Source: a virus (Duplodnaviria; Caudoviricetes). From it: a stretch of 58,478 nt of DNA. Location: IMG/VR virus record IMGVR_UViG_3300046010_007871, positions 1-58,478 of that record; one strand, 5' to 3'. The position numbers and the translations under genes were made by a program. Positions 38,338 through 58,478 of this stretch are shown here, piece by piece. The notes beneath the pieces are model-generated. The model worked only from the letters and a program-made list of their open reading frames with translations. It was not told the DNA's origin and did not search any database. Numbering within the stretch: the stretch's first letter is position 1; each line of letters begins with the position of its first letter.

Positions 38338-40184
38338 CGCGCACGACGGCGCTTGCTGCCCAGCGTCTCGGGCCGTTGCGTGCTCGGAATGGGCTCGTCG
38401 TCATCCTCGCCAGGCTTGCTCGACGGCGGTGCACCTGGCTCGCTTGGTGGCGCACCAGGCACGCTCGACGGAGGCCCACTCGGCGGCTCGCTATCTGATG
38501 CCTCGTCATCGGCGCCTGCCTCGAGTGCCTTGGCGTTCTGCTTGGCCACCGCAGCCGCCTCGTGCATGGCTTGCTCGGTGAGCTCGTGCTCCATCTCCTC
38601 AGACAACTTCTCGCTGTCGTCGTGCGGATAGATGTTCTGCAGCTTCTCGAGCGCAAGGCGCAGCGGAATAACCTGCGCGTTGTATGCGTCGACGGTCATG
38701 CGCACGACCTCGGCCTCGTCCTGCGAGGTGAGCCCGAAGTAGTGACCCCAACGTGCGCGGAGCCGCGGCGGCATCCACATTGGCACGCCTGCCACGTCGA
38801 CCGTGAAGGTGTCGAGGATGGGCATCACGCGCCGCACGCCGTGCACGTAGACCGAGCCTGGCGTGCGCTTCTCCTGCGTGTGCACGACGCGGTTGAGCAG
38901 GTTGATGACCGGGCACATCCAACCGTGCCAAAAGTCTTGCCGAAGGCCGTCCACGAAGCTCGTGGTGCGATGGTAGAGAAACGCAAGCGCCTTGCCGCTG
39001 ATGGCGCCCTTGACGGTCTCGGGGCTCGCCTTGGTGTAGCCGAGCACCTCGCCGATCTTGTCGCAGATGTCGGCGACGTGGTCGCTGATGCTGTTGAGCG
39101 CATCACCTGGGAGCGAAAGCAGGCCGACCTTGGCCTCTGGGTTCTCGTAGCTCCACACGGTGCCAGCGCCCTTCTTGCGCGCTGGCCTGCCACCGGTGGT
39201 CGAGCCGAACACGTAGCCGCTGCCATCCTTTGCGGGGACGATCGCAGCGCGGCCCATGCCACCAGCTGGTGGCGCTTGCGGGTCCACGCCCGTCTCGTAT
39301 GCCTGCGGGTCGCCGCTGTAGATGGCCGCGCGCCCACGCTGCGAGAGCGAGTAGTTGAGCGCGTCGAGCTCGTCGAGCTGCGTGCCGTGAATGGGGTAGC
39401 CATCCAGGTCGCTCGCGTGCTCGTAGCTCGAGCGCAGCTTGTACCAAACCACGGGGCAGAACCCGAGGTTGTGCGTCACGCTCTTGGCTGCGTCCTCCTG
39501 CCAGTCAATCTGGCCGAGGCCCATCTGCATCATGTCGACCGGCTTGTAGACCACGTCGCGCGTCTCATCGATGCGACGCCGGTAGAGCTTGGCGTAGACC
39601 ATCCATTGGCCCTGGTCGCTCTTTTCGTACGAAAAGAACGGGTATTGCACCTCGAGGGCTTTGATGGTCGAGCCGCTGTCGTCGAACTCTGGCTGACACC
39701 ATTTTGCGCGCAGCGTGTGGATCGCAGGGCAGCCGTTGACGAGCGCCACCACGGAGACCGCCGTGCCGCATGCTTCGGCGTTGGCTAGCGCATCGACGCA
39801 CGCCTCGGGGAAGCACGCGTGCCGCATGAGCAGCCGCAACCATGCCTCGTAGAGCTGCGCCATCTCATCGGGCATACCCTCGCCGAGTAGCCGCTCGTCG
39901 TCGTCTGCGGCGGCGCTCATGCCAGGGAATCGACCTTCGCCGAGCGCGAAGTCGCAGTGCTGCCGAATCGCGGCCTCCACGATGGAGTGCACGATGTTCG
40001 GCGCGCGCTCCATGAGCGGCACGTCTTGCTTCGGGTTGAAGAAGTCGGGGAGGCCTTCGTATTGCTCGCCAACGACGTAGCGCTCGAGCCTGTCGAGTTT
40101 GCGGTACCGCGGCGATAGCCACTGTTGCGCAAGTCGCTCGGCCTGCGTGAAGCCTGCGATATTGGTGGCGTAGAGGCCGTGCAT
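38334..40184 (-). CDS. Portal protein
   Basis: Size, position after TerL, HNLGFCPVVW, SGKAL, acidic tail. Confidence 0.8.
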   Translation of the reverse strand: MHGLYATNIAGFTQAERLAQQWLSPRYRKLDRLERYVVGEQYEGLPDFFNPKQDVPLMERAPNIVHSIVEAAIRQHCDFALGEGRFPGMSAAADDDERLLGEGMPDEMAQLYEAWLRLLMRHACFPEACVDALANAEACGTAVSVVALVNGCPAIHTLRAKWCQPEFDDSGSTIKALEVQYPFFSYEKSDQGQWMVYAKLYRRRIDETRDVVYKPVDMMQMGLGQIDWQEDAAKSVTHNLGFCPVVWYKLRSSYEHASDLDGYPIHGTQLDELDALNYSLSQRGRAAIYSGDPQAYETGVDPQAPPAGGMGRAAIVPAKDGSGYVFGSTTGGRPARKKGAGTVWSYENPEAKVGLLSLPGDALNSISDHVADICDKIGEVLGYTKASPETVKGAISGKALAFLYHRTTSFVDGLRQDFWHGWMCPVINLLNRVVHTQEKRTPGSVYVHGVRRVMPILDTFTVDVAGVPMWMPPRLRARWGHYFGLTSQDEAEVVRMTVDAYNAQVIPLRLALEKLQNIYPHDDSEKLSEEMEHELTEQAMHEAAAVAKQNAKALEAGADDEASDSEPPSGPPSSVPGAPPSEPGAPPSSKPGEDDDEPIPSTQRPETLGSKRRRAR

Positions 40185-40624
40185 CAGCGCGTGATCGCCT
40201 GACCAATGATCGTGACGGACTGCGAAGCACCGGCGCTTGTGCCGGTTCCACCGTCGAACAGCAGCCGCATCATGTCACCCCACGCGCCGCCTAGGATGGT
40301 GTCGACCGCGAGCGCGGCGCTGAGGCCAGAGCCGATCGTGGTAGCAGCGGTCACAGCCGTGGTGCGGTTGACCTGATACGCGCTAAGCGATGCAGCAGCA
40401 CCCGCGCTCAGCTGCGGAAAGTGCGCGTAGTCATACCAGGTCGTGCCGCCGTCGTATGACGTCTGTAGGTACACGTCGAGCGTGCCACCGGTGCCGCCTT
40501 GCAGGTTGCCGATGATGGTCAACGCATCGAAGCCGGAAAGACCGCCGACGATGCCAGTGCTGGGCGCGTTCGGGCTTGCTGCGCTTGGGCTTGTGGCCGT
40601 GATGGTGACAATCTTCGGGCGCAT
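40184..40624 (-). CDS. Virion structural protein (hypothetical)
   Basis: LDVYLQTSYDGGTTWYD, similar to 34187-34612. Confidence 0.55.
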   Translation of the reverse strand: MRPKIVTITATSPSAASPNAPSTGIVGGLSGFDALTIIGNLQGGTGGTLDVYLQTSYDGGTTWYDYAHFPQLSAGAAASLSAYQVNRTTAVTAATTIGSGLSAALAVDTILGGAWGDMMRLLFDGGTGTSAGASQSVTIIGQAITR

Positions 40625-40627
40625 GGT

Positions 40628-41980
40628 TCATCCCCAGTCAAACGAGCCATCCGATAAGCCGGTGGCGCGGTAGGCCTTGGTGTGTAGTGCGTCGAACGCT
40701 GCAACAAACGCGTCGACCTGGTCATCGTGTCTGTCTTTGATGCCTGTGAAGCTACAGACCTCGTCGACAAAGTCTCGCAGCCACGGCGCCTCGCGCGGCA
40801 CGTGCACGCGTTGGCTTGACCACGCCGCCGCGGTCGAGGTCGCTCGTGAAAGCTTGTCCATCTTGGCCGGGTCGGGCCGAAACGGAATGCCCTCGCGGCG
40901 CAAGAAGTCCACGGTGCCCTTCTCGGTGCCGCCGATGTAGCCGTACAGCTTGGCACCTGGGAAGCGCTCGGTGAGCTCGCGAAGCGTTGCGGCAAACTCG
41001 GTTGCCTTGGCCTGCATGCGCCGCACGTCGAGCACGTACCATGCGTCGAGCTGCGCGTTGTGCGCCATGACTACCGCGACGCTGTAATCGGCGTAGCTGC
41101 TTTCGCTGTACGCGAGGTCGATGCCGATGCTCACTCGATAGGTCTCGGGCAGCTTGTCGTAGAACGACACTCCAGAGAAAAGCTGCCCACCTCGAGGTCG
41201 CGGGCTGCCCATGTAGAGCGCCCACCAATCGTGCTCGCCGACGTCGCGGCGCACGCGCTCGAGGAACTTGGGCGGTCGCTTGTACCAGAGGCTCTTGCCC
41301 TCGTCGTCGAGCGCCGGGAGGTTGATGACCTCCCATGATTGCCCCTCTTGTCGAGCAAGCTCGCCGATGAGGTCGTCGGGATGCCACCTCGTGTGGCATA
41401 CGATGATGCTGGCGCCTGGGTGCACGCGCGTGAGAGCGGCGCTTGTCCACCAGTCGCGAATCTTGCCGCGTACGAGCGCGCTGTCGGCCTCCTCGCGGTT
41501 CTTGTACGGGTCGTCGACAACCAGCACGCCCGAGATGCCGTGGCCTGTCAGCGGGCCACCTACGCCGGTAGCGAGCAGTCCACCACCTGCGTCGGTGCGC
41601 CACTCGGCCATGGCTGAGGAGTCGCCGCGGAGCTTGACCCCCGCGGCGCGCGCGTAGTCACGGCAGAGCCTCGAGCGGCTGTGCGCGTAGTCGGCGCCAT
41701 ACGAGGTGAACGCGTTGGTCTTATCGGGCTTTGCTGCGATGAGCTGCGCAAGCCCGTGCAGGATGCAGAACGTCTTGCCGTGCTGCGGAGGCACCGACAC
41801 CAGCAGCCGCACCTCTTCGCCGTTGCGGATGCGATCGAAAGCGCGACACAGGGCGCCGAGGTGCCGAGGCTCCTCGAGCAGCGGCGACACGCGAGGCACG
41901 AACTCCGCGAGCGGCAGGCGCCACAGCGGCCTATTCGCCGCGCGCTGCACTGCCCAAGCTTGGAGTAGGGGCGTCGTCAT
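40628..41980 (-). CDS. terL: Terminase large subunit
   Basis: VPPQHGKT, LTGHG...VVDDPYK, TRWHPDDL, IDLA...DYS, HDDQVDA. Confidence 0.95.
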   Translation of the reverse strand: MTTPLLQAWAVQRAANRPLWRLPLAEFVPRVSPLLEEPRHLGALCRAFDRIRNGEEVRLLVSVPPQHGKTFCILHGLAQLIAAKPDKTNAFTSYGADYAHSRSRLCRDYARAAGVKLRGDSSAMAEWRTDAGGGLLATGVGGPLTGHGISGVLVVDDPYKNREEADSALVRGKIRDWWTSAALTRVHPGASIIVCHTRWHPDDLIGELARQEGQSWEVINLPALDDEGKSLWYKRPPKFLERVRRDVGEHDWWALYMGSPRPRGGQLFSGVSFYDKLPETYRVSIGIDLAYSESSYADYSVAVVMAHNAQLDAWYVLDVRRMQAKATEFAATLRELTERFPGAKLYGYIGGTEKGTVDFLRREGIPFRPDPAKMDKLSRATSTAAAWSSQRVHVPREAPWLRDFVDEVCSFTGIKDRHDDQVDAFVAAFDALHTKAYRATGLSDGSFDWG

Positions 41981-42112
41981 GGCGCCGAGAGTAGGAGGGC
42001 GCGCACGCGGAGGGGATACACGGCGCGCCCAGCTGACGAGGGACCGACGCCAGCACCACGCCAAACGAGGGAGACACGTCTAGCTGTGGCGAGCAAGAGC
42101 ATACGCTGTAGC

Positions 42113-42460
42113 CTAATCATGAGCAACCGCGTCGAGTGTAGGGCTCGACTCCACGCTATCTACCACGCTCGCGAACATCTGCGCCAGTCGAGTGTTGCGA
42201 GCGTAGGCATTTCGCTCGATCCCATGTGCTCGCCCCATGCACACGCACCGGCAGATGTTGCACGCGGCTGCCTTGCAGCGCTTGCCGCATGCGTGAGGCG
42301 AAGCCACTGGCGACACATACACCACGCGCAGCCACCGCAAACACCTCGAGCACGTGCGCCCAAAGCCAGGAAGCGGCAGCTGCAAGCCGTCGCATGGCGT
42401 GGCGTCGTCGAGCTCGGTCACCACGAGCTGGCACGCGTCGCAGTGGCCAACGAGCTTCAA
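42113..42460 (-). CDS. Cys-rich zinc-binding protein
   Basis: CDAC, CSRC, CGKRCKAAACNICRCVCMGRAHG. Confidence 0.6.
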   Translation of the reverse strand: MKLVGHCDACQLVVTELDDATPCDGLQLPLPGFGRTCSRCLRWLRVVYVSPVASPHACGKRCKAAACNICRCVCMGRAHGIERNAYARNTRLAQMFASVVDSVESSPTLDAVAHD

Positions 42461-43044
42461 TCCTGCACCATCTCCCAGGCTGACGAGTATGCGCTATTCG
42501 CGAACAGCGCTGCCACGCCAGCCACCTGCTTATATCGGTGCACGGCGTCGAGCTCCATGCCGAGTCGTTGCGCCACTTCTTGCTCGGTCAATCCTTGCTC
42601 GATGAGCGAGCGCACCACGTCTGCGTCGAGGTCAATCGCGTGCACCCCTCGAGCCTTGTTGAACTGGACGGTCGCTGCCATCCGCTTCGTCATATCGTGC
42701 GAGAGCACCACGACAGGCAAGTAGTCGAAGTCCAAGAACTCGTCGCTACCGATGCGCGATCGGTGGAAGCCATCAATGATGACAAACACCCCGTCAGCAT
42801 CATCCCAGATGGTGACGATCGGAAAGCAGAATCCGTTGTCCAGCACGCTTTGCTGTAGTAGCTCCATCTTGTCGGAGCTGACCGCGTTGGGGTTGTATGT
42901 GTTCGCTACGACCAGTTCTCTTTTTACGAGCAGCGTGTTGGCGCATGGCACAAGCACCTGGCCTCGGGTGCGGCTCTGAATGTACACCGGCTGCATCTGT
43001 GCTCGCTCGGCTAGAAAGTCTTGCATTGTATCTATGCGCTTCAT
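42457..43044 (-). CDS. ibrB: IbrB-like ParB-N domain protein
   Basis: ANTYNPNAV...LLQQS...GFCFPIV...IIDGFHR...ATVQFNKARG. Confidence 0.88.
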   Translation of the reverse strand: MKRIDTMQDFLAERAQMQPVYIQSRTRGQVLVPCANTLLVKRELVVANTYNPNAVSSDKMELLQQSVLDNGFCFPIVTIWDDADGVFVIIDGFHRSRIGSDEFLDFDYLPVVVLSHDMTKRMAATVQFNKARGVHAIDLDADVVRSLIEQGLTEQEVAQRLGMELDAVHRYKQVAGVAALFANSAYSSAWEMVQD

Positions 43045-44204
43045 CACATCACCCCTTCGTAGTACGCCAGCAAGCTCTCCCGGTGCACTTGCCACGGGTC
43101 TGGCTTGTTATCGATCGGCAGGTTGTTTTCGTAGTCATTGAGCACCAGTTGTCGGCACTGCTGGCGCGCAACGTATTCGTTTTGTAGTTGAGCCTCAAAG
43201 CGCGCCTCAAAGATTGGTCGCCGCGCTTGGTCAAGATGTGTGGCTAGCAACAAATTGCGATAAGCTGTCCACGTCTTGTGAGCCTTCGGCAGCTTGGTGC
43301 ACTTGAGCATCTTGGCTGCCTTGCCTGTCTCTTGGGCAAGGGCGATGCCCTTGATGCGCTTCAGCAATCGCTCGTAGGTCTTTGGCTCAAACTCGGGGAG
43401 GTCGGCAATCGACTTGAAAGCGCGCTCGTGAATCAACGACGAGATGCGCATCTGCGTCGGATAGACGCCCTTCTTGTGCATGTGGTCATAGACTTTATGA
43501 TATTGCAACTTCTCGTCGTGGATGTATCTCCACACGTCCGAGACGTCCCAGTCGAATACTGGGTAAAGCGTCCAGTTTCTGCCTCGCTTGCTGCCCCAAT
43601 AGACTTGTTGCCCACCGATGGTAACTGGATGGTCTACAACGGCGCGCCATCGGTTAAGCGACTCGCCCTTGGCACGCAAGCCCACGAGCCACGCCGTGTG
43701 ATCGTAGCATCGCTCGAAGTTCTGAATGACGCCGTAAAAGTCGAGCCTCTTGCAACCTGAGCGAAATCGCTCTTGGGCTTCTGGCCATGGCTTGTGCTTG
43801 ATGGTGCCAGGCGCGTTGCGCTTCTTGCGCATCCATCGCGCGCTCTCGCCTGGCGCCCACGCTTGCAGCTCGGCCTCGCTTACGCTGGTAGCGTTGGTCA
43901 GCGTGAACGGCACCTGCAGCCACAGCGGCGTGGTGTTTTCTGGGTAGAGCTGCATCATGTACTCCACCTGTTCGATGGTGGACTGATACATCGCCTCCTC
44001 GTCAAGGAAAAACAAACCGATGCGTCGATTGCGTCTGTTTGCTTCCACGAGTGCAAGATGAGCCAGCACGGTGCTGTCTTTGCCACCGCTGATGGAGCAG
44101 ATAATCTGCTTGATGTGTCCCAGCTCTACCTGGTCAAACAGCCAGGAGATGCGTCGCCTTGCGGCTGCTAGTACGGTCTCACCGGTCAAGATTTTGCGCG
44201 GCAT
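43044..44204 (-). CDS. ibrA: IbrA-like PAPS-reductase-family protein (DUF3440)
   Basis: SISGGKDS, LDEEAMY, VGLRA..ESLNR, YPVFDW...DVW, MRISS. Confidence 0.88.
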   Translation of the reverse strand: MPRKILTGETVLAAARRRISWLFDQVELGHIKQIICSISGGKDSTVLAHLALVEANRRNRRIGLFFLDEEAMYQSTIEQVEYMMQLYPENTTPLWLQVPFTLTNATSVSEAELQAWAPGESARWMRKKRNAPGTIKHKPWPEAQERFRSGCKRLDFYGVIQNFERCYDHTAWLVGLRAKGESLNRWRAVVDHPVTIGGQQVYWGSKRGRNWTLYPVFDWDVSDVWRYIHDEKLQYHKVYDHMHKKGVYPTQMRISSLIHERAFKSIADLPEFEPKTYERLLKRIKGIALAQETGKAAKMLKCTKLPKAHKTWTAYRNLLLATHLDQARRPIFEARFEAQLQNEYVARQQCRQLVLNDYENNLPIDNKPDPWQVHRESLLAYYEGVM

Positions 44205-45084
44205 CGTTCACCCTCTGCGCCCATGCGCTCCAGCGGTCCCAGTACCAGGTGTCCGCTTTTGTGTCGGCTACCATCACTGGCAGCCGCTCTTGCTCTGTGA
44301 CCGTCAAGAAGTCGGTCATCTCGAGGTGATTGTGAGGCAACTCTAGCGCGATTCGTTCGCCTTGGCTAGTCACTTCTCGGTAGCTAGTCACGTCTGGCAA
44401 ACGCAGGCGCTGGTTCCTGGCGACGTACCGCAGCAAGGGGTTGGCTTGCGCCGCCTTGTCCTTGCCGGTCACCAGGGCAAGTGACCTCGGGATAATGTGC
44501 GGGTCCTTGTCTGGATCGTTGCGCACCTGCTCAAAGAGCTTGACTCTTTCCGCGGCGTAGAGCTCATGCGTGCGTCGACTCATCTGCACGTCGATTCGCT
44601 CAAGATGTAGTGGTCGCCTGATCACTTGCAGATCGACCTCCTCGAGCATCGATCTGTCGTAGCCTCGGTCGAACCACCTCGAGTTGGTCTCCCAGTCTAG
44701 GAGCGTCATGACGTCGTCGGGTTGCTCGATCAACGGGTATCGCTGGAAGATAGCCCGATGCTGCAGGTTGTGAAGGAACGTGCGCACGCAGTTGTTTTCG
44801 AGACACTTTCGTTCTCGGCCTCGCAGGCACTCGTTGAACACCAGCAGCGTGCGGTCTGCTGGCATCTGCAGGATGCGATAGTAAAACCGATACGCAATGA
44901 CGTCGGGCCAGTGCAGGAACGTGCCAGGCTCGTTTAGGTCGTCCGGCTGCACGACTCGACGCCGAGCGAACGACGGCGCCAGCTGCTCTGGAGATATGAC
45001 ACAAACGCGGTCAAGGCCATGCGCGGCACAGTAGTCGCGAACAGCCTTAGTCTTGCCCGCATCGTCAAGACCGATACGAATCAT
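44179..45084 (-). CDS. Hypothetical protein upstream of ibrA
   Basis: ATGA overlap; LLVFNECLR looks like a degenerate Walker B. Confidence 0.6.
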   Translation of the reverse strand: MIRIGLDDAGKTKAVRDYCAAHGLDRVCVISPEQLAPSFARRRVVQPDDLNEPGTFLHWPDVIAYRFYYRILQMPADRTLLVFNECLRGRERKCLENNCVRTFLHNLQHRAIFQRYPLIEQPDDVMTLLDWETNSRWFDRGYDRSMLEEVDLQVIRRPLHLERIDVQMSRRTHELYAAERVKLFEQVRNDPDKDPHIIPRSLALVTGKDKAAQANPLLRYVARNQRLRLPDVTSYREVTSQGERIALELPHNHLEMTDFLTVTEQERLPVMVADTKADTWYWDRWSAWAQRVNDAAQNLDR

Positions 45085-45269
45085 CTGTGAGCCTTTCTCA
45101 GCCACGTCAGCGTGACCTCGAGGGTCGCCGGATCGGTCATGTGCTCGGCTGCCCATGACGGCGCGAAGCGCGAAGGCGAGAGGACGTAGACCTTCTTGAT
45201 CTCGTGCTCCTCGCGGTAGCGCGTGACAATCTCGCCCTTTGCGGTGTCGTCGAGCCCCAGGTGAATCAC
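45081..45269 (-). CDS. Truncated paralog of the N-terminus of 44179-45084
   Basis: IHLGLDDTAK..Y...H.I.KV.VLSP..FAPSWA versus IRIGLDDAGK..Y...H.L.RV.VISP..LAPSFA. Confidence 0.55.
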   Translation of the reverse strand: MIHLGLDDTAKGEIVTRYREEHEIKKVYVLSPSRFAPSWAAEHMTDPATLEVTLTWLRKAHR

Positions 45270-45625
45270 GGCATTGGCTCTCGGCGCATGAACCATCCAC
45301 CGTTGCCGCGGCGCCAGTTCACGAATCCTGTCCGCTCGTGAAGCCTGCGCGATGCCGGGTTTGAGTCCGAGACGAAGGCGCAGAAACGCACGCTAGGCCG
45401 CGCCCGGTAGTAGGCCGTCACGAGCCCGCGCCCGCGGTACTCTGGCAAGACGAAGATTGGTCCGAGGCGATGCCCCCAGCGGTGCTCATGCGGCGTCACA
45501 AACCCGACCACGCGCCCGTCGCAGACGAGCGGGTCTCTCGCGTCGGCCCGTCGCACGAAGCCACGGACCTCGTAGGTCCTGTTGGCCTGTCGCAGCATCT
45601 CTATCGGCACTTCGAGCGCAGCCAT
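45266..45625 (-). CDS. GNAT acetyltransferase
   Basis: IFVLPEYRGRGL...NPASRRLHERTGF. Confidence 0.85.
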   Translation of the reverse strand: MAALEVPIEMLRQANRTYEVRGFVRRADARDPLVCDGRVVGFVTPHEHRWGHRLGPIFVLPEYRGRGLVTAYYRARPSVRFCAFVSDSNPASRRLHERTGFVNWRRGNGGWFMRREPMP

Positions 45626-46242
45626 GTTGCCGTCCTTTCGAGGCGCGTCGCGTTCATCTCGGTGCCGCGAAACGACGCACCGAGCTTGTGTGCCCACCTG
45701 GCCGTCATGCCGAGCCCCGTGCATGGGTCGAGGACGAGGTGGTTTGGCTGCACGCAACAGGAGAGAACATGCTTGGTTACCGGCTCGCCGTGAGGCACTT
45801 CGGGCCAGTCTCGGTCAATCTCTTGCGTCAGCATGTGCAGGCGAGGCATGGCCTCTGCCCGACCGAACAGGTTGAGCGTGACCGGCAAGGGCTTGCTCTT
45901 CGGGCCGTACGTCATCATCCATTGGCGCACGTGCTCAAAGCCATGCGCTGCCATGGTCTCCGAGAGCTGGTCAGCCCACCGGCATCCCATCTCGATGAAC
46001 ACAGGCGCCTCTGGTTTGGTGTGCGCCATGGCAACGCCTGCGAAGGCGTCGAGGAACTTTTCCCATGACGTGCGCGGAGCAGAGCCTCGCTCGCGCATCG
46101 TGTGCCAGTATTGCTGATTCCCAGGCCCCCACGGTGGGTCGCTGTAGAGCACGTCCGCGAGCTCTGCGCCCATGAGCTGCGAGACCGCAGCGGTCGTAAT
46201 GTCGCCCACCATGAGGGCGTGCGTGCCGATTTGAATCTTCAT
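45601..46242 (-). CDS. DNA methyltransferase (N6/N4 beta-like)
   Basis: HALMVGD, YSDPPW, VLDPCTGLGMTA...GTEMN. Confidence 0.8.
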   Translation of the reverse strand: MKIQIGTHALMVGDITTAAVSQLMGAELADVLYSDPPWGPGNQQYWHTMRERGSAPRTSWEKFLDAFAGVAMAHTKPEAPVFIEMGCRWADQLSETMAAHGFEHVRQWMMTYGPKSKPLPVTLNLFGRAEAMPRLHMLTQEIDRDWPEVPHGEPVTKHVLSCCVQPNHLVLDPCTGLGMTARWAHKLGASFRGTEMNATRLERTATWLRSKCR

Positions 46243-46475
46243 CGGTCCTTTGCGATCTGGTATGCGAGCTCGCGCACCTGCGTCGCACTGAGGTTGCGCC
46301 AGAAGGTACCGGCGCTCGACATATGTGGATTCTTGTTGCAGAAGATTCTAGCCTGGCGAGCCAGGGCGGCGCGACGCGACGAGCTGAGGTTGCGGAAGGC
46401 GACGACCGATTGGTTGCTCCAGTCGGCGTGGAGGTGCGCGGCTAGGATGTTGTCCATGTCTTGAAGCTGTTTCAT
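46239..46475 (-). CDS. Small protein, tandem copy B
   Basis: Shares SVVAFRNLSSSRRAAL...LSATQVRELAYQIAK with copy A. Confidence 0.7.
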   Translation of the reverse strand: MKQLQDMDNILAAHLHADWSNQSVVAFRNLSSSRRAALARQARIFCNKNPHMSSAGTFWRNLSATQVRELAYQIAKDR

Positions 46476-46478
46476 CGG

Positions 46479-46664
46479 TCAGCCCTTTGCGATCTGGTAT
46501 GCCAGCTCGCGCACCTGGGTGGCGCTCAGGCCTTGCCACCACTTACCCGCGCTCGCCATGTGCGGGTTTTGGTTGCAGTAGATGCGAGCCTGTCGCGACA
46601 GGGCGGCGCGGCGCGACGAGCTGAGGTTGCGGAAGGCGACGACCGAGGGGTTGTTGTTGTCCAT
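46479..46664 (-). CDS. Small protein, tandem copy A
   Basis: First gene after a near-consensus promoter. Confidence 0.7.
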   Translation of the reverse strand: MDNNNPSVVAFRNLSSSRRAALSRQARIYCNQNPHMASAGKWWQGLSATQVRELAYQIAKG

Positions 46665-46670
46665 GCCCAG

Positions 46671-46699
46671 ACAATAGCGCTAGACCTCTCGCGTGTCAA
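46671..46699 (-). promoter_or_regulatory. Sigma70-like promoter, apparently leaderless
   Basis: TTGACA-17-TATTGT, 6 nt before ATG 46664, with an upstream A-tract. Confidence 0.75.
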
Positions 46700-46716
46700 G
46701 CGTCGCGGTCACTTTT

Positions 46717-47520
46717 TTAGCTGACGGTGTCGAGGGCTGGCATGAAGTCGCGCCACAGGCGGTGCAGGCTGGGGTAGTAGTGCCGCAGCCATGCGGCATG
46801 GGTACGGCTACGCCCGCACACCCACCAGCTCTTGCGCACGGTCCACGGCGCATCTCGGTGTATGTACCCGATGCAGCGGTAGAGGGGCAGCAGGGGCACC
46901 TCGCGCGAATGCACGTATGCCAACACGTCGAGGCCCGACCACCACGCTAGCGGGTGGGCATGCACCCTGCCACACTTGAGGCGCGCGACTGGGCCAGCGG
47001 TAGAGAGGCGCATCATGCGGGCGTCGTTCTCTTGCGCTCGCAGCCCCATCATGACGCACCCGTAGGCTGCGCTGGCTCGGTCAACGAGGTCGTAGAACAC
47101 CACACGCGACAGGCCAGCGGAGCGCGAGTGCAGGTCCTGGTCGACCTCGCGCATGTGCTCGCGCAGGTAGTCGAGCGCCGAGACATCTGGGCGTAGCACC
47201 TCGAGCTGTGCGCCCCAGCTGACGGCGAGCTCGCGCACGAACGCCTCTTCGCCTGGGTAGTCTAGGTCGTCCTTCTGCGAGATAAGCGGCACGTGTGTGA
47301 GGCCCAGCTCGTGCACGACGAGATGCGCGAGGCAGGTGGAGTCCTTGCCAGCCGACCACATGACACACGCGCGCGGCTCCAGCTCTAGCGCCTCGAGCAC
47401 GTAGCGCTTGGCTTGCGTTACGCGGCGCTGGAAGCCTGGCGAGCGCGCATGCACGTCGCACACGCGCCGCCAGTAGTCCCACGCCTCATGGTCCTCGCGA
47501 CGTAGGACGGGCTCTATCAC
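46717..47520 (-). CDS. CysH-like PAPS-reductase-family protein of the type IV-B locus
   Basis: WSAGKDS PP-loop, MGLRAQEN..R, HPLAWWSGLDV; GTGA overlap with csf3. Confidence 0.85.
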   Translation of the reverse strand: MIEPVLRREDHEAWDYWRRVCDVHARSPGFQRRVTQAKRYVLEALELEPRACVMWSAGKDSTCLAHLVVHELGLTHVPLISQKDDLDYPGEEAFVRELAVSWGAQLEVLRPDVSALDYLREHMREVDQDLHSRSAGLSRVVFYDLVDRASAAYGCVMMGLRAQENDARMMRLSTAGPVARLKCGRVHAHPLAWWSGLDVLAYVHSREVPLLPLYRCIGYIHRDAPWTVRKSWWVCGRSRTHAAWLRHYYPSLHRLWRDFMPALDTVS

Positions 47521-48191
47521 TGTCGGATGGCCTCTGCAGGCACGGCGATCGGCACTTCTAGCCACCTGGTCCAGTAGGGGTAGGTGAGCGTGCCTTGGCT
47601 GAGCTGCGCCTGGTCCGAGAGGCCAGGATAGTCGGCTGGCAGGTTGCGCATCGGCATGCCATCTCGCAGCACTGGGAAGCCAGGCCACAGCTCGTCGTCG
47701 CGCATCTCACGCACGGCCCACGCGATGACTCGCCCGCATCCGGTCGAGCGCTTCTTGCCCACGTACGAGATGAGCTGCAGCAACCGCCACACCTCGTCTC
47801 GGTCGCCGACGCACCACCAGGTCATGCGGTCACCTGCAGCGTGAAACGTGCGCAGAGGCAGCCGATACGAGCGAGCCGCGCCTGCATCGATGCGATACGA
47901 CCGAAACCGTTGCTCTCCCAGTGCTTGCGCCTCTTGCTGCGGGAAGCGTCGGTTGATCCACCGCTGCTCTGACTCCTCCACCTCGCAGTGTCCGACGCTG
48001 GCGAGGTGAAAGCGTCGCGAGTCATGCCATGCGACTGGGATGTCGACATGCCTTAGCTCGGTCTCTAACGGGGCGTTGTAGATGCCCTGCTCCATGGCGA
48101 CGGCTGCGGCGAGCAGCCCATCGAGTGCGAGCGGTCCGTTTGGCAGCGCTACGGCGCCTCGGAGCGTTGCGACGACCTCGAGCGCCCTCAC
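47517..48191 (-). CDS. csf3: Type IV Cas5-like RAMP (Csf3)
   Basis: LALDGLLAAA, VGD...LL...VGKKRSTGCGRV G-rich loop, MRNLP, YPYW. Confidence 0.85.
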   Translation of the reverse strand: MRALEVVATLRGAVALPNGPLALDGLLAAAVAMEQGIYNAPLETELRHVDIPVAWHDSRRFHLASVGHCEVEESEQRWINRRFPQQEAQALGEQRFRSYRIDAGAARSYRLPLRTFHAAGDRMTWWCVGDRDEVWRLLQLISYVGKKRSTGCGRVIAWAVREMRDDELWPGFPVLRDGMPMRNLPADYPGLSDQAQLSQGTLTYPYWTRWLEVPIAVPAEAIRQ

Positions 48192-49201
48192 GCTTCCACC
48201 TGTCCGAGGAAGCTTCGGATTTCGGTCTTGCGCTCTGCGACGTGCGCGCGGAAGAGCTCGCCCACGCGCGGCGCTAGCTCAGTTGGTGCGATGGGCAACA
48301 GCGTATCGGCGGGTCTCGCCAGCTCGATGTCCCACGCCTTGACCGGGCGCACCTCACCATGCCCTGTGCCTCGCTTGCCACCGACGCGAGCGCGAGACAG
48401 GAAGCCCACCGCGGCCAGCCGGAACGTGTCGAGCGCGAGCGCGCTGTAGACCGTGGCCTGGCACCCCCAGTAGAGGAGTGACCCTTGCGCAATGCGCTCG
48501 TATCGGCGCGGCATCATGGCGCTCTTGCTCCTGCCTCGTGCGACGGCGTCGTCGCTCTCGCTAGCCGCTTCGCTGTCTGCGAGCTTGCCGAGCAGCTTGA
48601 CCTGGTCCTCGCCAGTCGTGAGCTCACGCAGCGATGGCCGTAGCATCGGGTCCATGCGCACGCGCTGCACCTCCTCGACGTGCTCGCGCGCGGTGGCGAT
48701 ATGCGCGCCGGTCTCGCGCACGTACGCCATGACGTGCTCGGGCACGAAGCGCGCCGTCTCGTCGCAGATGACCGTGGCATCGTCCACCTCGAGCATGCCT
48801 GGGATCATGCGGTTCTGTGCGCATCCTCCGAACAGCTCAAGCGCTGGCACGAGCTCGCACAGCTTGCGGTACTCGTCGAGGCGCACGACGGCACCATCCG
48901 AGCCGCGGCCCTTGATCATGCCGCCCGCAAATAGCAGGCGCAGCGCGGCCTCGTTCAGCGTGTTGCGCTCGAGCAGCCCCGCGGCGTCGAGAAACATGTA
49001 CGCCGCAGCCTCGCGCATGCCGTGGCGCATCGTGTCGGCGGTCACGATGGGCACGAGCGAGAATCGGCCATCGGCGCGGCGCACCTTGCGGCGCATGATG
49101 ACGGCCTCGTTTCCGATGGACTCGGCGTGGTGCGCGATGGGCTGTGCAGCCTCGAGCACGAAGTCGTAGCGGTGGCGTTGCATGCTGGTCTTGTCAGACA
49201 T
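48188..49201 (-). CDS. csf2: Type IV Cas7-like backbone (Csf2)
   Basis: PIAH, VPIVTADTMRHGMRE, LLFAGG, LFGG...MIPGML, VGGKRGTGHG. Confidence 0.9.
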   Translation of the reverse strand: MSDKTSMQRHRYDFVLEAAQPIAHHAESIGNEAVIMRRKVRRADGRFSLVPIVTADTMRHGMREAAAYMFLDAAGLLERNTLNEAALRLLFAGGMIKGRGSDGAVVRLDEYRKLCELVPALELFGGCAQNRMIPGMLEVDDATVICDETARFVPEHVMAYVRETGAHIATAREHVEEVQRVRMDPMLRPSLRELTTGEDQVKLLGKLADSEAASESDDAVARGRSKSAMMPRRYERIAQGSLLYWGCQATVYSALALDTFRLAAVGFLSRARVGGKRGTGHGEVRPVKAWDIELARPADTLLPIAPTELAPRVGELFRAHVAERKTEIRSFLGQVEA

Positions 49202-49592
49202 CGTCAATCTCCCCTTCGTGTGCCCTGCGTTCCTCTGCGCGCGTCTCGGTGATGAGTCGCGCCATGGCCATGAGTAGCCCCGTTTCTCGCTCGACGAGGT
49301 CGAGCACTTCGCGGTCGCCGTGGTCGCGTGCGACCTTCGACAGATCCCACAGCGTTTGCGCGCCCAGCTTGTCGAGCGTCGTGGGCAGCTGCAGCCCGCG
49401 CAGTACCGCCGTGGTCCACTCGTCGACCGTGCCGCAGCGTCGAGCTGCACTCAAGATGCGCCCCTGTAGCTGCTCCCAGTGCTTGAGCACTACCGCGGCG
49501 CCATAGGTGCGCAAGTAACGGCGGCGCGCTGCGAGGATAAACTCAACCAGCGCGGTGCGCGCCTTGTCTGCGTGTTGTTCGCCTAGACTCAC
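49194..49592 (-). CDS. cas11: Type IV-B small subunit (Cas11-like)
   Basis: About 132 aa, all-helical (HWEQLQGRILSAA), between csf1 and csf2. Confidence 0.65.
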   Translation of the reverse strand: MSLGEQHADKARTALVEFILAARRRYLRTYGAAVVLKHWEQLQGRILSAARRCGTVDEWTTAVLRGLQLPTTLDKLGAQTLWDLSKVARDHGDREVLDLVERETGLLMAMARLITETRAEERRAHEGEIDDV

Positions 49593-50466
49593 TGCGTTTC
49601 CCCTTCTCTTCAATCATGCGCGCGGCGACGGTCTCCTCGTCGCGTTGCGCGAGCCACAGACAGAGCGCAAACCACGCGAGCGACCTCGCGTATCTCCAGT
49701 CGCGCTCGAAGTGTTCGATGCGCTCACGGCATCGCTGGTATGCGTGCGAGGTGTACGCGCCGCGCTGAATCTCCTCTTTGGTGGCGCCCGCGGTCAGGAG
49801 CTCGGTCGTGTCGCCGACCAGGCCCCAGAGCCGAGACGACGCCGGTGGGATGAACACCTCGGACTCCTCGAAGCGCACGCGCCCGCTGCCTCGGCGCATG
49901 TTGATGGGCGTGTATGGCAGCACGTGCCTTTGGCCTGTGTCGGAGATGGCGGCAAACCATGTGCAGGGCTCAAGCGGGCTCGACGTTGCCATGCGGCGCA
50001 AGAAGGCCAGGATCTTGGGCTTCTCTCCCTTGGTTGCGTTGTCGAGCGTGTGCCCGTCGTACAGGTGCGTGAAGTTGCTCCACCTGCCTGCGCTTTCCTT
50101 GCGGCACGTGCCGTCGCACTTGGCGCATGGCTGCCCAGGCTCGCGGTGCCCTCGGTTGCCTTTGCGAGCCTGCGCTTGCGATGGCTCGACGCCGGTGCCG
50201 TTGCATCGATCGCACGGCTTTGGCTCTCGGCCCACGACTGGCGAAAACCGAGCGCGCACGTACACGCATGCCTCGCATACGTGGTCCGAGTGCGGCGAGC
50301 AAAACGACGTCTGGTCAGTCAGCGATGAGCCGATAAACTCCCACACGAGTTTGCCGCGCGTGCTCTCACCACCGCACACCGCGCACGGCTCTGCCTCGTG
50401 TGCGGCGCAGCCCTCGACGGCAGGTCGACCAACGTAGGCATGCGCGAGCTGCGAGGCCGAGATCAT
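49543..50466 (-). CDS. csf1: Type IV large subunit (Csf1/Cas8-like)
   Basis: CAVCG...SSLTDQ...VCEAC zinc finger, WSNFTHL, AISDTGQRHVLP; position in the operon. Confidence 0.75.
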   Translation of the reverse strand: MISASQLAHAYVGRPAVEGCAAHEAEPCAVCGGESTRGKLVWEFIGSSLTDQTSFCSPHSDHVCEACVYVRARFSPVVGREPKPCDRCNGTGVEPSQAQARKGNRGHREPGQPCAKCDGTCRKESAGRWSNFTHLYDGHTLDNATKGEKPKILAFLRRMATSSPLEPCTWFAAISDTGQRHVLPYTPINMRRGSGRVRFEESEVFIPPASSRLWGLVGDTTELLTAGATKEEIQRGAYTSHAYQRCRERIEHFERDWRYARSLAWFALCLWLAQRDEETVAARMIEEKGKRSESRRTTRRQGAHRAG

Positions 50467-50744
50467 CGCTTGACCATCCGCGCCGACTGATAGGGCAACA
50501 TCTGCCGCATGCGCCACTCGCGCAGCGCGCTGGTGTGGGCGCGCACTTCGTTGTTAGCGATGTCGAGGAACACCGGCAGCGGGTCGCGCTTGCGGAGCGC
50601 CAGCTGCCTCGCGTTCTGCGGGGTGATGTCGCCGAGCTGCGCCGCGATGTGCTTCCACGACGAGACCCAGCCGTGCTCGAGCGTGCCCTCTAGCTGCGCC
50701 ACGCGGGCCTCTAGGTCCTCGAGACGCGAGAGCGCATCTTTCAT
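50463..50744 (-). CDS. Small DNA-binding protein (excisionase/MerR-like HTH)
   Basis: SWKHIAAQLG...DPLPV...ALREW. Confidence 0.55.
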   Translation of the reverse strand: MKDALSRLEDLEARVAQLEGTLEHGWVSSWKHIAAQLGDITPQNARQLALRKRDPLPVFLDIANNEVRAHTSALREWRMRQMLPYQSARMVKR

Positions 50745-50971
50745 GGCTTGGCGGCTCGGTAGCGCCGGATGTGCACCACCTTGTAGGTGATGGTCTTGGG
50801 CGATTCTTGGCGCAACGCACGAGCTCGAAAACGTGCGGCGCCGCGCGAACCAAACTGCGTGGTCGGCAAGATGGCGGTCTTGTCGCCGATGGGGCCGCGT
50901 CGCTCGCCGTCGACGTAGTAGATCACCTGCCAGTACTCGGCGATGAGCTTGCGTTCAGAAGGGAAGTTCAT
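50741..50971 (-). CDS. Hypothetical protein
   Basis: GGAGG RBS; ATGA overlap downstream. Confidence 0.5.
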   Translation of the reverse strand: MNFPSERKLIAEYWQVIYYVDGERRGPIGDKTAILPTTQFGSRGAARFRARALRQESPKTITYKVVHIRRYRAAKP

Positions 50972-51407
50972 CGACGCCTCCCTCGGGCGAGTAGTCCGCG
51001 ACCTGCGGCTGTGCTCGTCGAGCTCCACCGCCGTGGCTGCCGTTGCCGCGTGCGCCCTGCTCGCTCTCTGGCCCTCGGCCTGCGAGGTAGACCTGGCTGG
51101 CGTGCACCTCGGTCTTGTAGCGCTTCTCGCCGGTTTTCTTGTCGTCGTAGCTCGTGGTGCGCAACGAGCCCTCGACGATGACGGTGGAGCCCTTGCGCAG
51201 GATGCGTGCGAGCCCCTCGGCCCGCTTGCCCCACACCACGACGCGCACCCATTCGGTGCGTTGCTGGCGCTCCTTGTTTGCGTCGAGGTAGCTTTCGTTG
51301 ATTGCGAGCGAGAGCGTCATCACGCTCGCGCCGCCTTGCGTGCTGCGCAGCTCGGGGTCTTGTCCGAGGTTGCCCATCACGATGACCCTGTTCATTCCCT
51401 CAGCCAT
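50955..51407 (-). CDS. ssb: Single-stranded DNA-binding protein
   Basis: NRVIVMGNLGQDPELR...TEWVRVVVWGK...VEGSL, C-terminal DELPF. Confidence 0.97.
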   Translation of the reverse strand: MAEGMNRVIVMGNLGQDPELRSTQGGASVMTLSLAINESYLDANKERQQRTEWVRVVVWGKRAEGLARILRKGSTVIVEGSLRTTSYDDKKTGEKRYKTEVHASQVYLAGRGPESEQGARGNGSHGGGARRAQPQVADYSPEGGVDELPF

Positions 51408-51906
51408 GTCGTGTCCCTTTCCATGCTTCACTTGCGGCCATGAAGGCCTCGATTGTTTGCGTGATGATGCTGGCGAGCGCCGGGTGCTGCGAGCTGCAGG
51501 ACAGGGCGAGCCAAGCTTTGACGCTCAGCTTGGGCGCCTTGGCCTTGCGCTGGTCTGCCTCGTACGCCTCGCGCGTGGCTGGCATGTGCGCGGCCAAGTT
51601 GGCGAGCTGGCCCAGGTGAGCCACGGTCTGCGGTGGTGCGTTGGCGCCTCCGTAGACGTGCCAGAGCGCGCTAGCGTGCTCGGTCGTGAGAGCGTCGAGC
51701 CGCTTGCGGATGGCTCGGTGCCGTGCTGTCGCGCGCATGTGCGCGTCGGTCATGCGCTGGTCGGGCTTGGCAGCGCTGCCACCGAAGGCGCCCTGAGCGG
51801 CTGACACCATCGGCCCCCAGCTGCTGGCGATGCCCATCTCGCTGGCCGACTGTTGCCAGTACCAGGTGAGGTCGTCGTTAGCTATGGGCCGCGGCTTCGG
51901 TCGCAT
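51400..51906 (-). CDS. Hypothetical protein
   Basis: In operon with its neighbours. Confidence 0.55.
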   Translation of the reverse strand: MRPKPRPIANDDLTWYWQQSASEMGIASSWGPMVSAAQGAFGGSAAKPDQRMTDAHMRATARHRAIRKRLDALTTEHASALWHVYGGANAPPQTVAHLGQLANLAAHMPATREAYEADQRKAKAPKLSVKAWLALSCSSQHPALASIITQTIEAFMAASEAWKGTRHG

Positions 51907-51908
51907 GG

Positions 51909-52229
51909 CTAGTTGACTCCGCTTTGCTTTCTTGCGCGCAGCGCCGCTAGCTTTTCGCCATACATTCGGAGCACCTTCAGGATGGCATCGGCGGCGACGT
52001 CGCCCGTGTCGCGAGAGGCAGCGAGAAGCAGCATGGCGAGGTCGCCCGCGGTGTCGCCCGTGAGCACGAACGTGCCTTGTAGCTCTCCCGTTGCGCTGTA
52101 GAGTCGGATGGCGACTTGCATCGTGGTGGATGCGTCGCCGACGATGACATCCGCGGTCGACACCGCGAGTTCTATCGCTGCGATGCGACCCTCATCGTCG
52201 AGGATGTGCAGCGACAGGCGAGGCGTCAC
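51909..52229 (-). CDS. Hypothetical protein
   Basis: GTGA overlap; part of a run of small ORFs up to 52849. Confidence 0.5.
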   Translation of the reverse strand: MTPRLSLHILDDEGRIAAIELAVSTADVIVGDASTTMQVAIRLYSATGELQGTFVLTGDTAGDLAMLLLAASRDTGDVAADAILKVLRMYGEKLAALRARKQSGVN

Positions 52230-52835
52230 AGCGTCTCGCGCACGTGCTCAGCGCGCAGCCATGAGCCTCGGTCGTCGAGCAGTCGATCTCGATTCTCGTA
52301 GGCACACATCTCGCCGCTAAGGAGCAGCGCAATCGGCCCCTCGGGTGTCGAGCCTGCGATGTCGACGACCTCCCAGGCAAACCCAGGCATCGCGCGGAGC
52401 CAAAACGTATCCCCTACTTGTACATCGCTCATGGTTGGTCCCTTTCTCAATCTGCTACCACAAGACGCTGCCACTCGGGCAGCTGGTCGTCGTCGATGAT
52501 GGCCACGAGGTTCCCTGCCTCGGCCACGTACTGTCTGCCATGCTCACGCTCGCGAATCTCGGTGATCGAGAACACGAGCGCGGTGTAGTGCCGTGGCGCT
52601 GGCGGCTCCCACGCCCTGCGCCGGATGAGGTCGCCCAGCTGCAGTCTCGCCGCATCAGTCATGGCTTGCGCTCGGGAACATGTATCGCACGCAAAACCCC
52701 ACGCGGCTCTTGGTCTGAATCCTCCCGGTGCGCACGCATTCGTGCTGCACGTGGATGGCATCGATGCGCACGACCTTGCCGACGTATGCCGAGCCGTCAG
52801 CAGGAATGACGATGTCGCCAACCCTGCACCAGTAG

Positions 52836-53564: not shown

Positions 53565-53682
53565 TAGCTTATGTCCCTTCTAGCTGGTCAATCACTTACC
53601 ATCTTGACACGATGCCCGAACCGGGGCGAGGCTACGCGCGCGGTCTCTGGTAGCGCTCTGGTGCTTCTCCCCCCCCTGCAGA

Positions 53683-56266: not shown

Positions 56267-56267
56267 G

Positions 56268-56501
56268 TCACACCTCCGAGCCTGGGATCGACGCCAAGAT
56301 GTCGCTCTTTCGCTCTTGCCAACGCGTCGCGACGTACATCGTGTGAGCTGGAGTGCTCATGCCTGCAAGCACGCTCATCAGACCGTGCCTCGAGATGCCA
56401 ACGGCAACCGAGATGGGCCGGATGCCCGTCCGCTCGATGGCGTCGCGTATCTCGTCGGCGATGCTCTCTGGCAGCTTATCTCGCTTGATTGGTGACCTCA
56501 T
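56268..56501 (-). CDS. Cro-like HTH protein
   Basis: GIRPISVAVGISRHGLMSVLAG. Confidence 0.6.
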   Translation of the reverse strand: MRSPIKRDKLPESIADEIRDAIERTGIRPISVAVGISRHGLMSVLAGMSTPAHTMYVATRWQERKSDILASIPGSEV

Positions 56502-56507
56502 GAGCCT

Positions 56508-58475: not shown

Positions 58476-58478
58476 CTC

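Follow-up and report, generated by a model that had tools for sequence, protein, structure and literature searches.

What does a type IV-B Csf effector operon do in a tailed phage when the genes that follow it on the same strand encode a second PP-loop enzyme, a ParB-fold protein and a methyltransferase (MTase)? The question is raised by an island in the IMG/VR virus record IMGVR_UViG_3300046010_007871, whose full 58,478 nucleotides were analysed and are called the window below. The record is that of an uncultured lake-water myovirus, estimated to be 79% complete, which encodes tail sheath, baseplate, portal and terL. From position 50466 down to 42113, from csf1 through a Cys-rich open reading frame (ORF), all genes lie on the minus strand, and terL comes next. 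Their order is csf1-cas11-csf2-csf3-cysH-like, then a gap of 52 bases, then sm1-sm2-MTase-GNAT-71-aa ORF-U-IbrA-IbrB-Cys-rich ORF-terL, where U denotes a protein of 301 amino acids (aa). Our answer, held with moderate confidence, is that the two gene sets make up one composite phage system, in which a Csf ribonucleoprotein takes the place of an SNF2 motor and engages nucleic acid on behalf of PP-loop enzymes and a methylase. The genes on which the argument turns are as follows.

49543-50466, minus strand: csf1, Cas8-like large subunit, Cys-rich, 307 aa (PADLOC PDLC01721, Csf1_0_IV, E 3.9e-16; TIGR03114 E 6.2e-7, below cut-off)
49194-49613, minus strand: cas11, small subunit, 139 aa (PADLOC typeIV_Cas11, E 5e-6 to 2.5e-4)
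48188-49201, minus strand: csf2, Cas7 backbone, 337 aa (PADLOC Csf2_0_IV E 1.6e-39; TIGR03115 E 6.5e-12; phrog_22746)
47517-48191, minus strand: csf3, Cas5, 224 aa (PADLOC Csf3_0_IV E 1.8e-36; TIGR03116 E 1.6e-11)
46717-47520, minus strand: cysH-like PP-loop enzyme (CasCysH), 267 aa (PF01507 E 1.3e-9)
45601-46242, minus strand: DPPW methyltransferase, probably beta-class N6/N4, 213 aa (PF01555 26.3 bits against a cut-off of 26.7; phrog_498 E 2.9e-8)
45266-45625, minus strand: small GNAT-fold protein, about 119 aa (PF00583 28.2 bits against a cut-off of 20.7, E 2.5e-6)
44179-45084, minus strand: U, minimal SNF2-like two-lobe protein by its AlphaFold 2 (AF2) fold, predicted IbrA-IbrB adaptor, 301 aa
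43044-44204, minus strand: IbrA-like PP-loop enzyme (PAPS_reduct + DUF3440), 386 aa (PF01507 E 2e-13; PF11922 E 2.1e-7; phrog_2302 E 5e-72)
42457-43044, minus strand: IbrB-like ParB-N/Srx-fold protein, 195 aa (phrog_2159 E 1.8e-44; TIGR00180 E 2.7e-4)
40628-41980, minus strand: terL, at the downstream end of the island

Searches against Pfam, NCBIfam, PHROG and PADLOC bear out the gene content, strand and coordinates that a first-pass annotation had described for 42113..50466. Its inventory of the region stands except that it had missed the 71-aa ORF at 45081-45296, which we read as the 5' stub of another U allele. Its "unknown 301 aa protein" indeed matches no family; it now has an SNF2-like fold by model, and we read it as the key adaptor.

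The first line of evidence is the conservation of the second gene set in other genomes. Scans with an alignment of U gave 54 viral and 19 genome loci, to which loci found earlier and the window were added; six duplicates were then removed, as were four loci lacking a full-length U, which left 72 distinct loci. Six-frame ORFs were annotated with hidden Markov models (HMMs) built and iterated from seeds in the window and in loci L005 and L006, the seeds being confirmed by PADLOC and Pfam; PADLOC also confirmed the csf genes of these two distant loci. Nearly all 72 loci carry U, IbrA, IbrB and MTase in this order on one strand, and an MTase homolog is found in nearly every U-IbrA-IbrB locus. On this evidence from gene neighbourhoods, U-IbrA-IbrB-MTase is a conserved module. 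Next to the MTase, a GNAT homolog is found in L002, L015, L021, L055, L097, L179, L181, L187, L190, L226 and L238.

The second line of evidence is what accompanies this module. At least two csf families lie within about 2 kb in 20 of the 72 loci. Upstream of U, 68 loci could be scored, the flank being too short in the other four: 45 have an SNF2 gene only (one of them as a fusion), 19 have csf genes only, one (L006) has both, and three have neither. All csf-type loci also carry cysH, save L050, whose contig ends at the MTase. Among cultured bacteria, the SNF2 form is present in Bergeyella porcorum CECT 9006 (L063), Anaerobacterium chartisolvens DSM 27016 (L077) and Peptostreptococcus sp. D1 (L080). 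The exclusivity of SNF2 and csf across the 68 loci has a raw Fisher p of 8.7e-13, uncorrected for relatedness. A replicate in metagenomes, restricted to the best 80 of 168 relatives and including three contigs already seen, gave 28 loci with SNF2, 25 with csf, six with only cysH in view, none with both, five with neither and 16 undetermined. Thus the module, as far as its neighbourhoods tell, has two nearly exclusive forms: one with an SNF2 helicase gene directly upstream of U, the other with csf genes and cysH adjacent to it or interleaved with it. No SNF2 homolog is present in the window.

In the csf-type loci the genes are co-directional, overlapping or abutting, and often interleaved, in at least 12 different orders, such as these.

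L130, L168 and L005: csf1-(cas11)-csf2-csf3-U-IbrA-IbrB-MTase-cysH
L074, a metagenome-assembled genome of Desulfobulbales: csf1-U-IbrA-IbrB-MTase-cysH-cas11-csf2-csf3
L025: csf1-csf2-cysH-U-IbrA-IbrB-MTase-csf3
L015: csf2-csf3..MTase-GNAT-U-IbrA-IbrB-cysH
Another csf-type order: U-IbrA-IbrB-MTase-csf1-cas11-csf2-cysH-csf3-csf3
A further csf-type order: csf..cysH-MTase-U-IbrA-IbrB

L015 has the IbrA and IbrB alleles closest to those of the window (63% and 70% identity), and in both L015 and L179 an MTase-GNAT-U-IbrA-IbrB block of the window's kind sits between csf3 and cysH. The first-pass annotation had proposed that the neighbourhoods of csf2 homologs be surveyed for co-occurrence with ibrA, ibrB, MTase and GNAT genes; this check was run from both sides, and from the side of the module it gives interleaved co-directional operons in which the two are together more often than chance allows. 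The proposed joining of type IV-B to an IbrA/IbrB cluster accordingly holds for related loci, while in the window itself the halves are split by a promoter-like site, to which we return below.

Several loci show variants of these arrangements. Tandem IbrA/IbrB pairs (U-A-B-A-B) occur in L021 (3995-7300) and L055, and two tandem csf3 copies in L048 (15915-17338), L049 and L051. Cas11 and Csf2 read as one ORF of 411 aa at 7231-8466 of L005. In L006 a Cas6e-like gene (14721-15305) lies between csf2 and csf3; its contig of 113 kb also encodes flagellin.

The protein that defines the module, U, has no Pfam, NCBIfam, PHROG or PADLOC match, and tblastn at E 1e-3 against 50,697 GenBank phage records found nothing. 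A word-based search returned 19 relatives, none with a Pfam domain or a name. An exhaustive profile search of 1.84 billion representatives yielded just 220 cluster representatives at E <=1e-3 and did not spread into helicases; the U family is thus small and closed. The AF2 model, with a predicted local distance difference test score (pLDDT) of 91.6, aligns by VIA-align to CSB (7oob_b) with Z 18.7 and a root-mean-square deviation of 3.5 over 289 of 301 residues, and to SWR1, INO80 and SNF2h with Z 16-17; SNF2 remodellers are also the top Foldseek matches.

The ATPase motifs of U depart from this fold family. A lysine occupies the Walker A position in 71 of 72 members, while GK[ST] occurs in one only, the window's own copy, which makes the window's U the sole member whose Walker A is canonical (GxxxxGKT). 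At the Walker B position the family has NE, DE, DG or SE. All members share an R-N-x-R motif (R223, R226), which by its position may correspond to the arginine fingers of motif VI. Since U has no SNF2-rel_dom or Helicase_C sequence match and no canonical Walker A/B family-wide, we class it as SNF2-like by fold and not as a helicase: its model shows a minimal two-lobe fold of the SNF2 type, newly recognised here, and its ATPase motifs are degenerate. In P0191, P0199, P0201 and ORF 8576-10861 of L054, U is fused C-terminally to true SNF2 helicases, the fusion proteins being 752-1144 aa long.

The third line of evidence comes from a model of U with its neighbours. When U was partnered with IbrA and IbrB in a three-chain model, the median score of three runs was 0.64, compared with 0.00 for the best control. 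A score of 0.64 is reached by 116 of 157 solved complexes and by 2 of 215 mismatched pairs; as our own alignments were used, this calibration is rough. At least 77% of contacts agree among the runs, with partner pLDDT of at least 83. The modelled contacts of U fall on the last helix of IbrA (372-386) and on the C-terminal part of IbrB (165-190), and the interface on U includes the family-invariant residues Y65, Y69, N98, C99, P195 and P199. The complex model supports the view that U binds both IbrA and IbrB.

Both predicted partners are recognisable. IbrA scores above cut-off for PF01507 (51.2 bits) and PF11922 (31.3 bits), in the PAPS_reduct-then-DUF3440 order that characterises this architecture. 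It has 74 invariant columns in 39 sequences, and the PP-loop SxSGGKDS occurs unchanged in 64 of 64. In its model (pLDDT 84.4), residues 5-270 resemble FAD synthase, APS/PAPS reductases, CysD and TilS (Z 12-15, with FAD synthase, APS reductase and CysD at 14-15), with about 270-386 barely covered; a profile search of solved structures gave marginal matches only, to FAD synthase and CysD. In IbrB, whose start at 43044 abuts the ibrA stop, the DGxHR motif known from ParB/Srx proteins is kept without variation (D91, G92, H94 and R95), and a profile search of solved structures found Noc (7ol9_A, E 1.8e-5), ParB and SbnI. The MTase carries DPPW at residues 35-38, and its C-terminal region matches the end of the PF01555 profile, the score being just under the cut-off.

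What chemistry might two PP-loop enzymes perform? The first-pass annotation had drawn an analogy to DNA phosphorothioation by DndC and SspD. On this alternative, IbrA, CasCysH or both would put sulfur into the DNA backbone in the manner of DndC or SspD. IbrA does match models of DndC weakly (E 1.8e-4 in PADLOC and E 1.7e-3 for TIGR03183, well short of the cut-off in both cases), and a ParB-fold partner beside a PP-loop enzyme recalls DndB/DndC as presented in passages of PMC10853773. The cysteines, however, tell otherwise: none is invariant in 64 IbrA sequences, where the best, C351, is present in 55, nor in 41 members of the CysH-like family, where the best column reaches 24. The region's 15 ORFs, moreover, have no PADLOC match to a cysteine desulfurase, DndD, DndE or SspB/C. 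Sulfur insertion is therefore disfavoured, Taylor et al. argue likewise for CasCysH in a passage of PMC8175902, and we consider this alternative very improbable. Adenylylation-type chemistry, by comparison, is what the PP-loop fold family suggests.

Taken together, these observations suggest how the composite system might work. The first set is an array-less type IV-B effector operon with a CysH-like PP-loop enzyme. The second, behind a promoter-like site of its own, comprises the MTase, the GNAT, the predicted adaptor U, IbrA as second PP-loop enzyme and IbrB as ParB-fold protein. In the csf form the Csf ribonucleoprotein would do the job of the SNF2 motor, engaging nucleic acid, possibly through bound RNA, and would bring the enzymes to it or hold them there. 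U would bridge IbrA and IbrB, as the model predicts; IbrA and CasCysH, with ATP, would activate DNA or an RNA:DNA hybrid for substitution by adenylylating one of its groups, and the methylase would add a second mark. A bolder form of this proposal, possible but in our view doubtful, holds that SNF2 motors and type IV-B Csf are interchangeable front ends of one phage machine (U, IbrA, IbrB and methylase), so that type IV-B would serve not for interference but as an RNA-guided or RNA-scaffolded recruiter of PP-loop writers (IbrA, CasCysH) that install an adenylylation-dependent mark on DNA or RNA:DNA hybrids.

The most likely purpose, which we put forward as a guess, is marking of the phage's own DNA before packaging as an anti-restriction measure. 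This would fit the position before terL, the exchange of the cassette between close relatives and its polymorphism in one sample. In three viral contigs, L001-L003, csf1 to cysH and terL are 94-99% identical at the protein level, whereas the intervening genes differ. L002 shares the MTase (91% identity) and the GNAT (100%), but its U is 43% and its IbrA and IbrB are each 61% identical. L001 and L003 carry a different set, IbrB-x-IbrA-y, with 33% and 40% identity and without U or MTase. All four phages of this lineage nevertheless keep an IbrA/IbrB pair between cysH and terL, at 33-61% identity compared with 94-99% in the flanks.

The junctions of this exchange can be located. DNA homology with L001 ends at 46662, just past the promoter-like site, and resumes at 42448, at the start of the Cys-rich gene; homology with L002 ends at 45124. 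The latter junction falls within the small ORF noted above.

45081-45296, minus strand: 71-aa ORF, 5' remnant of a displaced U allele (recombination scar), sharing 98% identity over 58 aa with the first part of the L002 allele; its N-terminus is as in P0010 and P0012

The stretch from U to IbrB has 57.4% G+C, compared with 66.4% from csf1 to cysH. In one lake run, word depth was 12 for the contig with the window's U-IbrA-IbrB, 18.5 for a second contig that shares only 45122-45254 with it, and 29 and 35 for the flanks; in another lake run, the window's allele had a depth of 56 against 53 for the flanks. As per-contig figures, these depths are no more than consistent with two cassette alleles coexisting in one population. 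Metagenome contigs break exactly at the cassette junctions (42416-46641). The IbrB-x-IbrA-y cassette, at 11293-14362 of L001, encodes two unknown proteins of 259 and 215 aa; as candidate relatives of U they were rejected, with hhalign probabilities of 9.9% and 0.1%.

Could the two sets instead be neighbours by chance of location? By this explanation, which we regard as rather unlikely, the type IV-B operon and the IbrA/IbrB module would each be self-sufficient and, in this phage, would share a hot spot for accessory genes between the replication genes and terL without working together. The first-pass annotation had itself raised the caveat that the halves might be independent, and it was right to do so: a promoter-like site separates them, and each half is alone in most loci.

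46671-46699, minus strand: sigma-70-like promoter site TTGACA-17-TATTGT, 10 of 12 consensus positions, between cysH and sm1

The site sits in the only sizeable gap of the stretch, that of 52 bases. A promoter scan of the region found two such sites when 1.4 were expected, so that the site alone is weak evidence.

The view from Csf2, for which at least 797 relatives were found, speaks against a strict link. Ten divergent Csf2 proteins gave an alignment too diverse for scanning, and two three-sequence alignments were used in its place; three scans in all gave 100 loci. A series of results, from these scans and from the module side, weighs against a composite system. IbrA/IbrB is missing from 88 of the 100 Csf2-found loci, and nine of the 12 carriers belong to the window's lineage or are seed contigs; scan by scan, the other loci without the module number 25 of 25, 39 of 45 and 24 of 27. 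In the window's Csf2 clade, U, IbrA or IbrB was found in none of the 25 new loci: the window's group of four nests in a supported clade of 29, the other 25 members of which stand alone, so the juxtaposition in the window is recent. The window's csf-cysH operon is intact and closed before the promoter-like site, and the cassette has been exchanged without touching the csf genes. The cassette of L001 and L003 moreover implies that U is not obligatory beside this type IV-B. Conversely, most module loci (45 of 68) have no csf genes. In an independent-pairs test of csf against SNF2, only three pairs fall on supported branches, with a median sign-test p of 0.5, which is not significant; the U tree is poorly resolved, and the csf state needs 11 changes on it, at least four of them forced by supported branches. 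Curated libraries underlie the gene calls in the window, L001 and L004-L006; elsewhere the calls come from purpose-built HMMs. Finally, both sets often lie just upstream of terL on their own (type IV-B in L083 and L088, the module in L009, L010 and L017), and a shared hot spot for accessory genes near terL could have united them.

Mere neighbourhood, on the other hand, does not readily account for interleaved single-strand operons in many gene orders and in other lineages, for the near exclusivity with an SNF2 gene at the same position, or for the retention of the IbrA/IbrB pair at this spot in all four phages of the lineage despite the swaps. The same MTase-GNAT-U-A-B block placed between csf3 and cysH in L015 and L179 likewise argues against it. 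The Csf2 scans also turned up three new loci with an IbrB..IbrA pair without U (L119, L132, L134), of which L132 (csf3-IbrB-x-IbrA-cysH) and L134 (csf2-IbrB-IbrA-cysH-csf3) are interleaved; apart from these three, the two divergent Csf2 clades have the module in seed contigs only. We conclude from these distributions that the module is an optional, and not a fixed, partner of type IV-B.

Among the stand-alone type IV-B loci other associations were seen. SNF2 or ResIII helicase genes touch phage type IV-B in L091 (6725-8890), L102 (6994-8709) and L096 (10684-12012), and a DinG-like gene touches the operon in L104 (6909-8657). An MTase-GNAT pair lies between csf3 and cysH in L097 (3955-6055), and an MTase takes the place of cysH in L084 (11619-12248). 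L085 (12666-14647) has a fusion of ParB_N and MTase with a dATP/dGTP diphosphohydrolase domain after it, and L082 (13318-17684) a SpoU-like methylase and a second PAPS-reductase gene.

A last alternative is gene regulation: an IbrA/IbrB-type pair would switch on late or accessory genes of the phage, and Csf would be an unrelated RNA-binding factor. The E. coli ibrAB genes are reported, by the title of Sandt et al. 2002, to activate prophage eib genes. The module is positioned where the late region begins, upstream of terL, and the fold of IbrB is of the ParB type, which binds DNA; a passage of PMC9068703 describes ybdNM of K-12 as an operon that is repressed and has no known role. Yet IbrA is extremely conserved with an intact PP-loop, and a methyltransferase and an SNF2-type partner accompany it; together these features argue for enzymology on DNA. 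Cassette swaps among near-identical phages are also unlike what a core late activator would undergo. We find regulation in place of bulk modification improbable and retain the composite system as the preferred explanation.

The joint presence of csf1, cas11, csf2 and csf3 assigns the first gene set to subtype IV-B by PADLOC, as does the adjacent cysH-like gene without a catalytic cysteine; matches to NCBIfam TIGR03114/5/6 are weaker than those to PADLOC and lie below their cut-offs. The SxGKDS motif is retained in 40-41 of 41 members of the CysH-like family. The csf1 gene starts with an ATG at 50466 that overlaps the upstream gene's stop codon, and a Shine-Dalgarno-like GAAGGGGAG precedes csf2. 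No CRISPR array was detected by TRF over the whole window or by a repeat search over 40000-58478, and Rfam at gathering thresholds gave no match in the window. No CRISPR-like repeats, and hence no possible guide RNA, were found; short RNAs might still be present. No PADLOC match to Cas6, a DinG/RecD helicase or adaptation genes was found among the region's 15 ORFs; outside this region the window was scanned with PHROG only. Among the 50,697 GenBank phage records, the sole match to Csf2 was in Skermania phage SPI1 (27% identity), and megablast of 42000-50600 found no match.

Three small genes of the second set had been listed in the first-pass annotation as components of the island.

46479-46664, minus strand: sm1, small protein, 61 aa, paralog of sm2, no family match
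46239-46475, minus strand: sm2, small protein, 78 aa, paralog of sm1
42113-42460, minus strand: Cys-rich ORF, 115 aa, just upstream of terL, no family match (Pfam, NCBIfam, PHROG, PADLOC)

The two sm proteins are identical at 48 of 59 aligned residues. Among L001-L007, sm1 is found in L002 and L003 only, and it occurs additionally in L178 and L181. The Cys-rich ORF is 89-90% identical across L001-L003 regardless of the cassette carried; it is lineage-specific and probably lies outside the conserved module. All three genes were dropped from the conserved system, since they are confined to this phage lineage.

Elsewhere the window encodes replication and nucleotide genes, namely RecT, an exonuclease, a dUTPase, a thymidylate synthase, SSB and DnaB. 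Between the dUTPase and thymidylate synthase genes, within 4647-7961 on the plus strand, lies a second, large DNA methyltransferase (4972-7143, an ORF of 724 aa, phrog_67 E 1.3e-75), so that, with the DPPW enzyme, the phage has at least two DNA methylases. At 55796-55923 there are two clusters of 11-base direct repeats (GGGACATGGCT-like, in six registers of 33 nt). A TC-rich run (55735-55790) comes before them, and an ORF of 403 aa (55055-56266), next to DnaB, contains or adjoins the clusters. The repeats look like iterons of a replication origin. Coding gaps suspected at 12.2-13.5 kb and 25.5-27.8 kb proved to be occupied by long ORFs. At least 98% of sampled words are present in 18 lake-water runs from 2020-2025, many of which may be source samples. 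Two runs labelled RNA-Seq look like DNA, with 90-99% relatives of the stretch, and no RNA dataset is among those listed as carrying it.

How does the island compare with known systems? Subtype IV-B, represented by the Csf complex of Mycobacterium sp. JS623, has the same five genes in the same order and likewise no array, Cas6, helicase or adaptation genes, and passages of PMC8175902 and PMC7038947 describe for published type IV-B the same CysH-like protein with a PP-loop and without a catalytic cysteine. The solved type IV-B complex, according to PMC7937560, binds heterogeneous small RNAs. Unlike known type IV-B, the window's set is carried by a tailed phage and is joined to MTase-GNAT-U-IbrA-IbrB, and in other lineages the module is inserted between csf3 and cysH. 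Published neighbours of type IV-B, in passages of PMC8175902, PMC7038947, PMC10848311, 10.1101/270033 and PMC7937560, are cysH, ADP-ribosyltransferase and N6-MTase, the last listed by Shmakov et al. (10.1101/270033) in a figure legend. In types IV-A (DinG) and IV-D (RecD) the Csf complex works with a partner of a helicase family (passage of PMC7038947), and the partner in the window has an SF2/SNF2-like fold; it differs in that U, as a family, is without canonical Walker A/B and that Csf would substitute for SNF2 rather than recruit a helicase.

The island of E. coli ECOR-9 with IbrAB, and YbdN/YbdM of K-12, have the same core of a PAPS-reductase/DUF3440 protein and a protein with a ParB-like nuclease domain (passage of PMC9068703), a likeness that rests on Pfam architecture and annotation. 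To this core the window adds a predicted adaptor of SNF2-like fold, a methyltransferase, a GNAT and the type IV-B complex. Dnd, Ssp and Dpd combine a ParB-fold protein (DndB, DpdB), a modifying enzyme (the PP-loop proteins DndC and SspD) and ATPases or helicases, among them DpdE of the SNF2 type (passages of PMC10853773 and PMC12839542); the helicase of L004 has PADLOC matches to DpdE and ZorD. The window differs from these systems in having no conserved cysteines, desulfurase, TGT or restriction component, and in being phage-borne and not part of a host defence island.

In the literature searched, supplements excepted, we found no link of type IV-B to IbrA/IbrB, ParB or SNF2; the terms "type IV-B", "SNF2" and "CRISPR" were not found together, the combination of type IV-B, ParB and methyltransferase gave no relevant paper, and the DUF3440 literature gave no CRISPR paper. 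The available passages of the comparative Dnd and BREX papers (PMC10853773, PMC12839542) do not describe the module. The fold of U, the conserved U-IbrA-IbrB-MTase module and its SNF2 and csf forms are thus new here, no such description having been found in that literature.

Passages of the reviews PMC8175902 and PMC7038947 give type IV-B no function and name the CysH-like gene as the key. That gene now gains a context, namely repeated and interleaved association with IbrA, a ParB-fold protein, an adaptor of SNF2-like fold and a DNA methylase, and the natural either/or pattern with an SNF2 helicase provides a testable clue to the role of type IV-B. The widespread and little-studied IbrA/IbrB (YbdN/YbdM-type) pair gains a dedicated structural partner, predicted by modelling, in a DNA-modification setting. 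Exchange of cassettes between near-identical phages, together with what may be coexisting alleles in lake water, offers natural variants for testing. If SNF2 motors and Csf are indeed interchangeable front ends of one machine, the long-unexplained association of CysH with type IV-B would gain a function.

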